Positions 2,704-7,955 of a DNA stretch of 64,000 nt are shown here, in pieces. Every line of letters begins with the position of its first letter. Within the stretch, counting starts at the first letter, position 1. The notes beneath the pieces were generated by a model. That model did no database searches, had not been told where the DNA came from, and saw nothing but the letters and a program-made list of their open reading frames with translations. The translations under genes were made by a program, and so were the position numbers. The stretch lies in assembly GCF_041886205.1 (NCBI RefSeq), contig NZ_CP169029.1; one strand, 5' to 3'. Origin of the DNA: Escherichia coli. Its GTDB lineage: Bacteria; Pseudomonadota; Gammaproteobacteria; Enterobacterales; Enterobacteriaceae.

Positions 2704-2917
2704 CGCGCACCTCGTGGCTGATTATGGACGGCGTTATTGGCAAAGTGGAACAAGACTCACTCCCGGGTCAGCAAACTCGAAAAATTGACGCTCCCATTAT
2801 TTGTGCTTTCGTTTTTTTCTATCCGCCAATAAACCCGTTTTTTTGTTGCTATTTAGCGCCTTTGTCTTATTGACTTACTGGTAGGCTTTGCTACCAGAAA
2901 TTATCCGGGAGATAAAA

Positions 2918-3232
2918 ATGTCAGCGATACAGGGGATTGAAGGGGTTATCAGCCAGTTACAGGCCACGGCGATGAGTGCGCGTGCGCAGGAATCACTGCC
3001 GCAACCGACCATTAGTTTTGCCGGGCAGCTGCACGCCGCGCTCGATCGCATAAGCGATACACAAACAGCCGCCCGCACGCAGGCAGAAAAATTCACTCTC
3101 GGTGAACCCGGCGTGGCGTTAAACGATGTGATGACCGATATGCAAAAAGCCTCAGTTTCTATGCAAATGGGGATTCAGGTGCGTAATAAGCTGGTGGCGG
3201 CGTATCAGGAAGTGATGTCCATGCAGGTGTAG
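2918..3232 (+). CDS. fliE: flagellar hook-basal body protein FliE
   Basis: ORF 2888-3232; start moved to ATG at 2918 ([15 protein letters not shown]...) giving the known 104-aa FliE. Confidence 0.93.
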
Positions 3233-3525
3233 GTTGTGTGACCTGTTGTTGATTACATCCGATTTTACCGCGTGGGCATGGATGGGGCAAACTCACTCAA
3301 TTTCTGGTTTAAAATGGATACCTGATCCTGAAAGTTTTCTGCCATCCACGATCCGTATACGCGATAAACCCTCTGATCATCAGAGCCCTCATTTGATACA
3401 CATCACCACGTCGGATGTTGTTACGACCGCAGACGCAACAGTAACGTTTGAATAATTTAATCTTTGTTGATGTTTTTATTCATATTCCGGGCTAGGGAAA
3501 TAATCAGGCGTAATTGTGTCACTGG

Positions 3526-3594
3526 AATAGAGGTTTCTTGTGGCGCATGTGGAAGGAGCGTCTACTTTGTCTAATAGAGATTTCTTATGACGCA
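3526..3594. repeat. imperfect 22-bp direct repeat pair in the fliE-yedK junction
   Basis: AATAGAGGTTTCTTGTGGCGCA (3526-3547) and AATAGAGATTTCTTATGACGCA (3573-3594), 19/22 identical, all three differences G/A. Confidence 0.5.
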
Positions 3595-3623
3595 GTATTA
3601 TTGATCAATAGTCTCCTGGCTTA

Positions 3624-4292
3624 TCAAACCGGTTGAATTAACTCCGCTCCCTGGTTTTTGATATTACCCACCGCGCGCGATACCGGGTGCCAGGTGAACT
3701 GGTTTGCTGGCACACAACCACTGGTAGCGATTTCTGAGGCTTCTTTACCGCTAATCTCTTGCCGCATCCATTCCCGCGCAGCTTCTGGCGACAGTACCAG
3801 TGGGCGGCGGTCATGAATATCTACCAGACCCTGGTCTGCTGCTGCAGTGACAATCAAAAATCCTTCGGCTTCGTCACCGCGCTCGAACGGTGTGCTGCCT
3901 ATCGCGGCCAGAAAAACAGGTTGTCCATCAGCACGATAGATAAAATAAGGCTGCTTTTTGTCGCCTTCTTTTTTCCACTCAAACCAGCCATCGGCAAAAC
4001 AGATTGCCCGACCATGTTGCCAGAGCGGTTTAAACATGCGACTGGTTGCGGCAGTTTCTACGCGGGCGTTAATCAGCGGCGGTTTATCCCACCATCCGGG
4101 AGCATATCCCCAGAAAACCGGATCCAGATGAAGGTGTTCATCACGTTCACTGAGCAGTAGGACTTTGGTTCCCGGCGCGACGTTGTATCTGCCAATGGGT
4201 TCGGGATCATAGGGAATATCGCGTTCAATATCTTCCGCGAGAAGCGCAAGGTAATCTTCACGCGTTTGGGATTGGGCAAAGCGTCCACACAT
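3624..4292 (-). CDS. yedK: abasic-site processing protein, SRAP (SOS response-associated peptidase) family
   Basis: 222-aa ORF starting MCGRFAQ..., the N-terminal Cys-2 signature of SRAP/YedK. Confidence 0.9.
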   Translation of the reverse strand: MCGRFAQSQTREDYLALLAEDIERDIPYDPEPIGRYNVAPGTKVLLLSERDEHLHLDPVFWGYAPGWWDKPPLINARVETAATSRMFKPLWQHGRAICFADGWFEWKKEGDKKQPYFIYRADGQPVFLAAIGSTPFERGDEAEGFLIVTAAADQGLVDIHDRRPLVLSPEAAREWMRQEISGKEASEIATSGCVPANQFTWHPVSRAVGNIKNQGAELIQPV

Positions 4293-4366
4293 AGAAACCT
4301 CCTGAGATCATACTGAAAAGAATAGGAGAGGGGGCGGGTAAAATCTATGTGTCAGAGGTAACGATG

Positions 4367-4398: not shown

Positions 4399-4632
4399 TT
4401 ACTTCTGAATTAAATAATGAATGGTCGGCCCGTCTTGCTGAATATCCAGCACCGTATAGCCGTGATTACGCGCATCCAGTGGAATATTATTGATCGACTG
4501 CGGACAGTCGCTCACCACCTCCAGAATTTCCCCTTTTTTTAACTGCGGCATCGCCTCAAGAGTTGCGACTGCCGGATAAGGGCAGGGTTCACCCACCATA
4601 TCAAGGCGGTAATCAGGAACGATATTTTTCAT
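4399..4632 (-). CDS. yedF: TusA-like sulfurtransferase-fold protein YedF
   Basis: 77-aa ORF with CPxP motif (GEPCPYPAV); 4-nt overlap with yedE. Confidence 0.88.
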   Translation of the reverse strand: MKNIVPDYRLDMVGEPCPYPAVATLEAMPQLKKGEILEVVSDCPQSINNIPLDARNHGYTVLDIQQDGPTIHYLIQK

Positions 4633-5834
4633 GCGATCTCCTTAGCAGTCTGCGGTGCCGCACGGCGGAAGAAGCGTTTTTCCCAGCCGATAATCAACAT
4701 CAGCGCAGCAAACAACAGCAAATATGTCACCAGCAGACCACCCATCGGGCCAAAGGTTTTCAGCAGGTTGATTTTGTCCCAGTCGGTGGCCAGCGCCGGA
4801 GCGAAATCATCCCAGTAATACGCCAGAATCGTTGAGCCGATCACGTTGCCCAGACCGACCCACCAGTAGTGCACCTGGCCTTCTACCGCGCGGTACATCC
4901 AGCCGGTTTCGCAGCCGCCTGCCAGCACGATGCCAAAACCAAACAGTAAACCACCAATTACCGCGTTTGGTCCCGCCCACATGATTTTGGGTTCAACACC
5001 TAACTGTACGTAACTGAAGATCCCGATGGCACTCACCGCCATACCAATAATGATTGCTTTCGCCATGTGGGTACGTCCGGTGATCCACATATCGCGGAAC
5101 GCCGAAGTAAAGCAGATTTGCGCACGTTCAATCAGTAAACCAAAGCCGACGCCAAACAGCATTGCCAGCCCCAGTTTGGGTTGGTTCATCGCCGTGAGCA
5201 GCGCCCAGCCCAGCATGCCGAAAAAGACCAGCATCCCGAGACGAAAACGACGCCGCGCCTGATCCGGTTTTTGCGTCAGCGGTGAGGCGGCAGAAACTTT
5301 CTGCATTTTCACGGGAATACGGAAGATGGGCAGCAGGGTAAAGCGCGCGCCAAACCATGAACCAATGGCAGTGGCGATGGCAAAGAACCAGGCATGCAGC
5401 GAGAACTGAGGAATGCCGGTAAAGAACGCCGCCAGGTTACAGCCCATTGCCAGACGCGCGCCAAAACCGGCGATAATACCGCCAATAATGGCCTGCATAA
5501 TGCGGATACGGCTGCGCGGCATGCGTAGTTTGACATTGTTGGCCCACAGCGCTGCAGCAAAGCAGCCGCCAAACATACCGAGGATCATCATCCCGTCGAT
5601 GCGGGTTAATGGCGATCCTTCCAGATGGATAATTTTAAAATAACCCCACTCTTCAGCATGGATGCCGAACAGCTGCAGGAGCTGACCGCCCCAACGGGTA
5701 AATTCACCCGTGACAGCCCAAAAGGTGCCAGTAATGCCAAAATAGTAAGTGGAGAGAATACCCGCCGCGATGACCGCAGGGATGGGTGCCCAGAATTTAA
5801 TCAACCAGGCGTGTTTGAATTGCTGCCATGACAT
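4629..5834 (-). CDS. yedE: YeeE/YedE family inner-membrane transporter (putative selenium/sulfur compound transport)
   Basis: 401-aa hydrophobic polytopic ORF; synteny with yedF. Confidence 0.9.
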   Translation of the reverse strand: MSWQQFKHAWLIKFWAPIPAVIAAGILSTYYFGITGTFWAVTGEFTRWGGQLLQLFGIHAEEWGYFKIIHLEGSPLTRIDGMMILGMFGGCFAAALWANNVKLRMPRSRIRIMQAIIGGIIAGFGARLAMGCNLAAFFTGIPQFSLHAWFFAIATAIGSWFGARFTLLPIFRIPVKMQKVSAASPLTQKPDQARRRFRLGMLVFFGMLGWALLTAMNQPKLGLAMLFGVGFGLLIERAQICFTSAFRDMWITGRTHMAKAIIIGMAVSAIGIFSYVQLGVEPKIMWAGPNAVIGGLLFGFGIVLAGGCETGWMYRAVEGQVHYWWVGLGNVIGSTILAYYWDDFAPALATDWDKINLLKTFGPMGGLLVTYLLLFAALMLIIGWEKRFFRRAAPQTAKEIA

Positions 5835-6017: not shown

Positions 6018-6434
6018 ATGATGAAAAAACTCGCAATTGCAGGCGCGCTCATGTTGCTGGCGGGCTGTGCCGAAGTCGAAAACTATAACAATGTCGTGAA
6101 AACCCCCGCGCCGGACTGGCTGGCGGGCTACTGGCAGACCAAAGGGCCGCAACGTGCGCTGGTCAGTCCGGAAGCGATAGGCAGCCTCATTGTCACTAAA
6201 GAGGGCGATACCCTCGATTGCCGTCAGTGGCAGCGGGTGATTGCCGTACCGGGTAAGTTGACATTGATGTCTGATGATCTCACTAACGTTACCGTAAAAC
6301 GTGAGCTGTACGAGGTTGAGCGTGACGGTAACACCATTGAGTACGATGGTATGACGATGGAGCGTGTGGATCGCCCGACGGCAGAGTGTGCCGCCGCGCT
6401 GGATAAAGCGCCGTTACCGACGCCACTGCCGTAA
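6018..6434 (+). CDS. yedD: lipoprotein YedD
   Basis: 138-aa ORF with lipoprotein signal (MMKKLAIAGALMLLAGC); synteny next to amyA. Confidence 0.8.
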   Translation: MMKKLAIAGALMLLAGCAEVENYNNVVKTPAPDWLAGYWQTKGPQRALVSPEAIGSLIVTKEGDTLDCRQWQRVIAVPGKLTLMSDDLTNVTVKRELYEVERDGNTIEYDGMTMERVDRPTAECAAALDKAPLPTPLP

Positions 6435-6467
6435 TGAAATCTCCCCGGCTTGCCGCCGGGGATGAAT

Positions 6468-7955
6468 TTAAATCACCTCTTCGATAACCCACACGCTGAC
6501 GCTGCCGCCGTTGCAAAAGAAGGTTGCTTCGCCGTTTTCGTCGGTCACTACGCTCTCTTGCCGGTTCCCCAGAAAATCACGCCAGGTTTTATTGCCGTAA
6601 TTCTCTCCCAGATGAATGGTTTTTTCGCCATCATCCCCGTTCGACATGACCACCACGCAGCCGGGATATTCGTCAGTGCCACTGCGGCTAAAGGCAATGC
6701 AGTTCGGATGGTCGAAAAATAACGTCTGTACACCGTGGGCGAAACGCTGACGAGCGAGAATTAACTCATCAAGCTGTTCGATTATTGGCATATCTATCGG
6801 ATAGGTTTGCCCGTCACCACCGACATCTTCGTAATGCGCACCGTAGAGGTCCGGATAGAATACCGAAGGAACGCCATTTTCCCGCAACAAAATTAAGGCA
6901 TACGCCAGCGGTTTAAACCACGGTTCGACTGGCGCTTCGAGGGCTTGCAACGGTTGGGTGTCATGGTTGGCAACGAGGGTTACGGCGTGAAAAGGATCGG
7001 CTTCCACCAGCGTCCCAGTGAAAATCTGCGTCATGTCGTAGTCGCGTCCCATGCGCGATGCTTCATGGAATTTCATCTGCAGCGGCGCATCAAACAGCAT
7101 GGTTTTGCCTTCCACCTGATCAATATACGTTTGCAGTTTATCGACTTCATGCGACCAGTATTCCGCCACAATAAACAGCGGCTTTGGCGCAACTTCTTGT
7201 ACGTGTTCGATCCACTCTTTATAAAACCACGCCGGTATATGTTTGACCGCATCAAGACGAAAACCGTCGCATTGTGTTTGTTCCATCACCCAGCGCGCCC
7301 AGTATTTAATCTCTTCCGTCACGGCATGATTGCGGAAATCGATATTCTCGCCCATCAGATAATCGAAATTACCTAACTCATCATCAACCTGATCGTTCCA
7401 GCCTTCGCCGGTGTAGTCGTTAACAATTTTAAATATGCCATCTTCATCAGGATTTTCGATATGGTCGATACCGCTAAAACATTTGAAATCCCAGATAAAC
7501 TGCGAGTATTGCCCGGCACGAGCGGGGAAGGTGTAACGCGTCCAGCCTTCGCACTCAATGATTTCTTCGTCAATTTGCGTACGGTCATCAGCATTTACAC
7601 GCTGCACGCGAATAGCTTCTTTTTCATCCGCGCCCATTTTGTGGTTGACTACCACATCCAACAGCACCGCAATGTCATTACGTTTCAGAGCGTCAATGGC
7701 GGCCAGCAGTTGTGCTTTATCGCCATATTTAGTAGGGATGCTGCCTTTCTGATCAAACTCGCCTAAATCAAATAAATCATAGGAGTCGTAGCCGACCGAA
7801 TACCCGCCCGATGCGCCTTTATAGGCGGGCGGCAACCAGACCATATTGATACCAATATCATTAAAACCGTCGGCGCGCTCGGCCAGTTCAGGCCAGAGCT
7901 TACCGCCTTCCGGGTAATACCAGTGAAAACATTGTAACAGCGTGGGATTACGCAT
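6468..7955 (-). CDS. amyA: cytoplasmic alpha-amylase
   Basis: 495-aa ORF with glycoside hydrolase family 13 motifs ([14 protein letters not shown]); synteny beside fliT. Confidence 0.93.

Follow-up and report, generated by a model that had tools for sequence, protein, structure and literature searches.

Features of the fliE-yedK junction

The window, a 64-kb stretch of Escherichia coli DNA, was examined at the junction between fliE and yedK. Positions 2900 to 4300 were 100% identical to E. coli 2017.17.03CC (NZ_AP027829.1), from which the RefSeq annotation was taken. The spacer between the two genes spans positions 3233 to 3623 (391 bp), and the following features were placed in and around it.

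2918-3232, plus strand: fliE, from the annotation of the identical genome and the translation; its final 20 nt also serve as the phage attachment core
3213-3235, no strand: attL core, TGATGTCCATGCAGGTGTAGGTT, with 23-nt identity to Escherichia phage IdasGreatGrand (L008 2954-2976), directly downstream of int
3236-3248, no strand: phage-derived spacer from the core to the int 3' end, from alignment to the same phage locus; an 11-nt deletion removed the int stop codon
3249-3385, minus strand: integrase stub (the K-12 "intG" remnant), ending in VYRVYGSWMAENFQDQVSILNQKLSEFAPSMP, with 91% nucleotide identity to the IdasGreatGrand int 3' end
3386-3497, no strand: relic DNA of no assigned source, collinear with K-12 locus positions 6432-6547 and missing from emrE-type alleles, which diverge at 3367
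3498-3525, no strand: left flank of R1, which follows the yedN/espR 3' end in K-12, O157, and other genomes
3526-3547, plus strand: R1, direct repeat copy 1, AATAGAGGTTTCTTGTGGCGCA, read from the sequence; in K-12 it lies between yedL and yedN (locus 5170-5191)
3548-3564, plus strand: 17-nt stub, which in yedL-bearing alleles is continuous with what is left of a pin-type DNA-invertase gene at its 3' end (...AFPAGDK*)
3564-3565, no strand: deletion junction, at which other alleles carry 603 bp comprising the pin remnant, a bidirectional hairpin, yedL, and 51 nt of yedL leader
3565-3594, minus strand: yedL 5' flank relic, consisting of 8 nt plus R2, contiguous with yedL in K-12
3573-3594, within the 3565-3594 relic: R2, direct repeat copy 2, AATAGAGATTTCTTATGACGCA, read from the sequence; part of the yedL 5' flank
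3608-3623, no strand: probable native yedK-proximal flank, the only spacer DNA common to all alleles, directly following the attR core in emrE-type alleles
3624-4292, minus strand: yedK (SRAP/SOS-response-associated peptidase), from the sequence reading and the RefSeq annotation of NZ_AP027829.1

The 391-bp, gene-free gap described in an earlier, sequence-only reading of this DNA was confirmed by the sequence and by the RefSeq annotation, and no credible open reading frame (ORF) was found in the spacer. The longest, a 73-amino-acid TTG ORF (3234-3455, plus strand), is antisense to the integrase stub and had no Pfam match. RefSeq carries no annotation in the repeat region of window-type genomes. 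The relic DNA at 3386 to 3497 had no match in the phage collection.

Phage attachment core and integrase remnant at fliE

The core at 3213 to 3235 consists of the last 17 nt of fliE, the stop codon, and three more bases, and its first 20 nt recur as attR in other alleles. The 3' end of fliE was assigned as an attachment core because of its 23-nt identity with the sequence just downstream of the phage int. The adjoining stub corresponds to about the last 42 codons (residues ~386 to 427) of a 434-amino-acid lambda-type tyrosine integrase and is oriented towards the core; the phage protein has the Pfam domains Arm-DNA-bind_2 and Phage_integrase. The stub is called "integrase, incomplete" by PGAP in sister genomes and intG, of cryptic prophage PR-G, in the K-12 annotation.

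Among 5,426 complete E. coli genomes, which formed the base of the census, this stub or a relative adjoins fliE in 5,159. A full-length, intact integrase was found beside fliE in six E. coli genomes, and UTAK-1 was the one examined. There, fliE and the old stub are separated by a complete P22-like prophage of ~39 kb; the stub has been displaced to attR, and a copy of the core stands at each prophage end (L011 605-624 and 39330-39349). The Ser codon at the end of fliE is TCC in the window, in the allele designated (f) below, and in the phage attP, and it is AGC in K-12 (L001 6701-6720) and others. In UTAK-1, the new attL carries TCC and the displaced attR carries AGC, which indicates that integration exchanges the last fliE codons for synonymous ones from the phage; the FliE protein has the same sequence in most alleles examined.

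A second core (attR) was present in allele (f) and UTAK-1 but was not found in the window, K-12, B1-56, or OW1E2 at up to 4 mismatches, so the window holds a truncated scar rather than a complete prophage remnant. The suggestion that the junction is a variable integration site was thus upheld by the identity of the fliE 3' end with the IdasGreatGrand attP core and by the UTAK-1 prophage that occupies it. The site is still active, and the fliE core remains a usable attB, live for P22-like phages. No description of fliE as an attB or of this junction was found in the open-access literature searched on fliE, yedK, EspR3/4, yedL, and yedN.

The further suggestion that the site is unoccupied in the window did not hold, as attL and the 3' stub of the integrase persist in the window, along with relics that trace to a pin-type invertase gene and to the 5' flank of yedL. 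A virgin attB would have no phage DNA between the core and the native downstream flank; in the window, positions 3236 to 3607 are filled by the integrase stub and other relics, and 16 nt (3608-3623) are common to all alleles. Almost the whole 391-bp spacer would therefore appear to be foreign relic DNA, since only these 16 nt are shared by the window and allele (f), whose attR core adjoins the yedK flank. The window is a decayed occupied state and not an empty site, and among the common versions of this old phage-integration scar its 391-bp gap is the most eroded.

Comparison with K-12 and loss of the yedL module

Pairwise blastn of the window against K-12 MG1655 (NC_000913.3, locus L001) split the window into three pieces collinear with K-12. 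Window positions 2900 to 3501 matched K-12 fliE and the intG region, 3498 to 3564 matched the 67 bp between K-12 yedL and yedN, and 3565 to 4300 matched K-12 yedK with the 59 bp downstream of it. K-12 carries two extra blocks, one of 603 bp with yedL exactly at 3564|3565, between the repeats, and one of 1,212 bp with the yedN pseudogene at ~3498 to 3501, 25 to 28 nt left of R1. The K-12 gap of 2.2 kb is the sum of 391, 603, and 1,212 bp. The gene order yedL-yedN-yedM-intG given for K-12 in the sequence-only reading was right, but its extent had been overstated as several kilobases, and intG, listed as absent, persists in the window as a remnant. K-12-specific DNA does adjoin the repeats, but as two independent blocks rather than a single island.

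The join at 3564|3565 is blunt and lacks microhomology. On its right, a counterpart of the retained flank, CATAAGAAAT-NNN-TATTAGACAAAGAT, occurs at an equal distance upstream of a yedL homologue that is only 77% identical and is found on plasmid pSCU-111-1 and on the chromosome of another enterobacterial species; the alignment to this homologue runs straight across the position of the deletion junction of the window. Judged by this alignment, R2 is native yedL 5' flank. On the left, the DNA downstream of yedL in other alleles comprises a hairpin and a pin 3' end that is 80% identical to an e14-like pinE end. This pin remnant, a 3' end of ~50 nt, is the sole recombinase trace at the repeats, and the pinE local alignment crosses the junction by ~6 nt only, so that the assignment of 3548 to 3564 to pin is weak. 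The yedL module had no match in phages, and an exact-protein context search with YedL and FliE returned allele types already seen and no others.

Both ends retained in the window are contiguous with yedL-linked sequence elsewhere. On these grounds we conclude that the window allele probably descends from one that carried yedL and lost 603 bp in a blunt deletion. Insertion of yedL into a preexisting R1-R2 pair was considered and does not fit. In one yedL-bearing locus, an ORF of 18 amino acids that PGAP names "cyclic lactone autoinducer peptide" occurs just downstream of yedL, where the pin remnant and the hairpin stand (L093 3083-3139, minus strand). The call is probably spurious, and the ORF belongs to the 603-bp block that the window lacks.

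The 22-nt direct repeat

R1 and R2 match at 19 of 22 positions, with their starts 47 nt apart, and the three differences are all G/A, as originally described. A degenerate pattern of the repeat (R), allowing up to 3 mismatches, matched the R1 and R2 sites alone in the 64 kb and nothing in 100 shuffles, and an analytic calculation put the chance of a 19/22 pair in 391 bp at ~2e-4; both results argue against chance, which had been one of the origins proposed. The edges of the repeat are sharp: the 60 nt to the left and the 30 nt to the right of the two copies were no more alike than shuffles. A longer duplicated unit around R was rejected, as the extended homology was not significant (P ~0.07 to 0.4). 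Tandem Repeats Finder gave no result, and a search of IMG/VR with the R pattern yielded two unrelated, chance coding matches and nothing else.

The number of copies differed among alleles. K-12, B1-56, and FDAARGOS_944 have two copies at 650-nt spacing that flank yedL (K-12 locus 4520-4541 and 5170-5191; likewise in L003, L004, and L093). Window-type alleles have two copies 47 nt apart. An O157-like strain (strain 130) with a tandem espR4/espR3 duplication has three, R1 following each espR copy. A single copy was found in OW1E2, MRSN346638, and UTAK-1 (loci L005, L092, and L011). The single copy combines the left flank of R1 with the right flank of R2, giving a gap exactly 47 bp shorter than that of the window. 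A single copy, as the empty allele of a mobile element would have, is seen in these three loci, and the window, which lacks yedL, has two. The 603-bp yedL block is offset from the repeats, beginning 17 nt to the right of R1 and ending 8 nt to the left of R2.

The repeats are not the phage attachment site, given that the phage core lies ~290 bp away at the fliE stop codon and that R occurs in yedL-bearing and yedL-less alleles alike. Nor are the repeats the attachment site of the island. Of the two signs that the sequence-only reading set as refuting it, presence in occupied and empty alleles alike is seen, but the lack of any relation to the insertion point is not, in that the repeats bracket the yedL block and only that block. 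A by-eye comparison of R with a degenerate fliE attachment core and with gix/hix-type invertase sites found likeness limited to GAGGTTT, and both assignments were rejected.

R1 is most likely the leftover of an older local duplication, a reading favored by the tandem duplications that the locus demonstrably makes in the O157-like strain. Against it, homology stops abruptly at 22 nt on both sides, so that later deletions must be invoked, and sharp edges are also typical of attachment-type sites.

Alleles among complete E. coli genomes

The window-type junction (R1, 25 nt, R2) was present in 1,014 of 5,426 genomes (19%), and in 935 genomes the match to the 141-nt query reached ≥99% identity. The allele of the window is thus a common polymorphism, unannotated in RefSeq. 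The yedL block was found in 1,287 to 1,314 genomes (24%). Any match to the R region was found in 2,688 genomes, and about half had no R. From an evenly spaced sample, the combination of integrase stub, R1, yedL, and R2 without espR was estimated at ~130 genomes and single-R alleles at ~340. Single-R alleles, whose right flank is rather diverged, have not descended recently from the two-copy alleles sampled, and might therefore represent an older "empty" state.

Allele (f), carried by about half of the genomes, contains fliE, the integrase stub, emrE, ybcL, ybcM, an nmpC-like porin or IS200/605, and yedK. Its second core, TGATGTCCATCCAGGTGTAG, is degenerate and stands 16 nt away from the stop codon of yedK (L006 19981-20000), which makes the allele a complete attL...attR bracket. 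From this position of the attR core, the original fliE-yedK spacer would have been ~16 nt long.

In many emrE-type alleles, an IS200/IS605 element (TnpA plus TnpB/InsQ) stands against the yedK stop codon (L007 18410-20012; also L108, L109, L113, and L116), and the TnpB ORF overlaps the 3' end of yedK by ~15 nt. The O157-like strain 130 (L004 8905-12619) has a 1,958-bp tandem duplication of the espR-R1-pin'-yedL unit, resulting in espR4, a truncated GNAT gene, and espR3, which shows that the locus is prone to duplication. The EspR4 protein had no match in the phage collection, and no espR-like gene was found there.

Proposed origin of the spacer

The spacer is probably a composite relic, made up of a phage scar and a module from which yedL was deleted, with the pair of repeats left over. 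A temperate phage with an attP core identical to the final 20 nt of fliE integrated at the 3' end of that gene, supplying synonymous codons and leaving the attL and integrase seen today. The prophage then decayed, with the last ~42 int codons surviving in the window lineage, and the DNA up to yedK came to hold the yedN/espR leucine-rich-repeat (LRR)-effector gene, the pin-type 3' remnant, and the GNAT gene yedL; this content is observed in present alleles, and all of it may have been phage cargo. R2 belongs to the yedL 5' flank and R1 to the far side of the yedL 3' end, the pair bracketing a 628-bp module in extant yedL-bearing alleles. The weakest step is the supply of R1, putatively an old duplication leftover at a locus still making tandem duplications in O157. 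In the window lineage, a blunt, illegitimate 603-bp deletion would then have taken yedL, with 17 nt and 8 nt of the module ends staying behind and R1 and R2 thus coming to lie 47 nt apart; the espR block is also missing, as an indel that could have gone in either direction. Other lineages would have collapsed R1 and R2 into one copy, which fits slippage or recombination between the repeats.

A different history, in which R1 and R2 are attL/attR-like crossover sites and a circular yedL module of ~650 bp, or a bigger second element of which pin'-yedL is what remains, entered a preexisting single R, is unlikely. In that case, the single-R alleles would represent the empty site, and the window would be occupied but internally deleted. 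Several observations would fit such an exchange, including the sharp bounds of the repeats at 22 nt, their bracketing of a variable yedL module in K-12, B1-56, and O157, the existence of one-R alleles joining the R1 left flank to the R2 right flank, the serine-recombinase (pin) remnant that abuts R1, and the location of the closest yedL homologue in a cassette array of another species. However, R2 is native yedL leader in that diverged homologue, where it lies 62 nt inside the cassette and not at its boundary, and a preexisting R without yedL is hard to square with a yedL-linked R. No associated recombinase gene was found at the repeats, the pin remnant being a 3' end only and pointing the wrong way for a crossover site, and R occurs neither elsewhere in the window nor, save for the two chance coding matches, in IMG/VR. 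Two copies are also kept in the window, whereas simple excision would not leave both.

Possible regulatory function of the repeats

Comparison of E. coli with the 77%-identical homologue showed stronger conservation of R2 together with AGACAAAGAT, which includes a -35-like TAGACA, than of the remaining yedL leader. This relatively good conservation upstream of diverged yedL genes suggests that R2 plus AGACAAAGAT may contribute to the promoter or regulatory region of yedL. The remainder of this putative region, including the likely -10 element, has been lost from the window together with the gene.

That the repeats are functional cis-elements kept by selection without yedL, either as parts of a yedL operator or promoter or within a small transcript from 3460 to 3620, seems quite improbable. 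The conservation of R2 plus AGACAAAGAT with its -35-like motif would speak for it, as would a GTGACA after R1, where a scan found a promoter-like site in K-12. Against this stand the loss of the likely -10 element and the gene from the window and the chance-level yield of the promoter and terminator scans in both the window and K-12. Rfam covariance models gave no match at E ≤ 1 between 2700 and 4400, and RNA folding of both strands of 3480 to 3626 was no better than that of shuffles (z = -0.2 and -1.7). R is also about as variable among alleles as the sequence on either side of it, and half of the E. coli genomes lack it. Most likely, the repeats do nothing in this window.

A cassette array with a diverged yedL homologue

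Outside E. coli, the nearest yedL homologue is part of an array of small cassettes (GNAT / GNAT / 168 aa plus LysR / QueH / GNAT) in another enterobacterial species. The array is flanked by a phzF-like gene on one side and by the fyuA end of the yersiniabactin island on the other (L101 to L107 and L009). Its boundaries (L101 7860, 8571, 9380, 11265, and 12304) carry the motif TCCGCTGTGTGCCAGGAG(C/G)GGA(M)(R)TT in the same orientation, within a foldable, imperfect palindrome of ~75 nt. Strains differ by whole cassettes exactly at these motifs, and no integrase was found within 8 kb. The array looks like an integron-type array or CALIN.

None of the E. coli loci contains the boundary motif GTGCCAGGAG(G/C)GGA, and no attC-like imperfect palindrome was found 3' of E. 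coli yedL, where the e14-like hairpin and pin 3' end stand instead. A resemblance of the yedK 3' flank to the boundary motif was rejected as not significant (P ~0.08). We regard it as very improbable that R1 and R2 were the crossover points of a small, recombinase-driven yedL cassette (integron-like or serine recombinase) inside the prophage scar, with the single-R alleles as its empty site and the window as a crippled occupied one. Least credible of all, and refuted by the comparisons above, is the view of the sequence-only reading that the window is a pristine, never-occupied attB and K-12 has one island bounded by the repeats: the gap is indeed short and gene-free, with K-12-specific DNA near the repeats, but the window holds an integrase stub and a phage-side attachment arm, K-12 differs by two separate blocks and shares intG with the window, the phage core is at fliE and not at R, and the attR core 16 nt from yedK in allele (f) marks nearly the whole spacer as foreign.

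Relation to known systems

In E. coli K-12, e14 and phage 21 integrate at the 3' end of icd, with phage DNA replacing the gene end. The fliE site is alike in that its attP core equals the last host codons and the stop, int lies beside attL and reads towards it, FliE is unchanged through the synonymous TCC and AGC Ser codons, and the displaced gene end is at attR. It differs in its target, fliE, and in that the window keeps an int stub of ~140 nt and no attR. Relative to K-12 intG and cryptic prophage PR-G, the window represents the same locus with the same stub, collinear save for the 603-bp yedL and 1,212-bp yedN blocks that it lacks, but has the phage-type TCC at the end of fliE. The O157-type locus of the LRR effectors EspR3 and EspR4 (PGAP names) has its pseudogene counterpart in K-12 yedN, and R1 follows each espR there; in contrast, no espR sequence is left in the window.

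Short direct repeats that bracket deletion-prone segments are associated with slippage or illegitimate recombination. The population likewise holds alleles with two R and a 628-bp insert, two R and 25 nt, and one R, but the deletion in the window bypassed the repeats, as a blunt loss of 603 bp between them. Integron cassettes with attC sites resemble the array, with its conserved, foldable ~75-nt imperfect palindromes, in which the nearest non-E. coli yedL homologue sits, whereas E. coli yedL is followed by a hairpin and the pin remnant, and R is not a boundary motif.

The window is therefore an undescribed example of a known and ordinary kind, a prophage scar at an attB in a gene 3' end with later indels. 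For annotation, the fliE-yedK spacer of about one-fifth of complete E. coli genomes is a prophage scar (attL plus integrase stub) with a deleted yedL module, and neither native intergenic DNA nor an empty site. Prophage prediction stands to benefit from recognizing a live attB around the fliE stop codon, which also helps to account for the strong mosaicism of the region.

The locus outside E. coli

An outgroup search based on YedK recovered 80 loci, among which synteny with fliE was found in Franconibacter only and in no other Escherichia species. No truly empty fliE-yedK junction was present among the outgroups and alleles recovered, so the ancestral state given above is the one that we infer. 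In Franconibacter pulveris (L084 8636-8860), a C-terminal fragment of an integrase (HTYACWSLTAGANPSFIASQMGH) is oriented towards the 3' end of fliE, and an ORF for a 393-amino-acid membrane acyltransferase-like protein lies between this fragment and yedK. The fliE attB seems to be used across genera.

Most close YedK homologues (70 to 87% identity; Citrobacter, Enterobacter, Klebsiella, Salmonella arizonae, and others; L013 to L091) are not beside yedF or fliE, which indicates that the yedE-yedF-yedK-fliE synteny is narrow, and several of the genomes with such homologues carry two copies. Enterobacterial yedK contigs were also found under the names of a Lachnospiraceae metagenome-assembled genome, a Chryseobacterium sp., Streptococcus infantis, and Streptomyces morookaense (L012, L021, L061, and L080). 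The contig filed under Lachnospiraceae is 98% E. coli-like and carries yedF and fliE, and these misfiled contigs likely represent assembly contamination.
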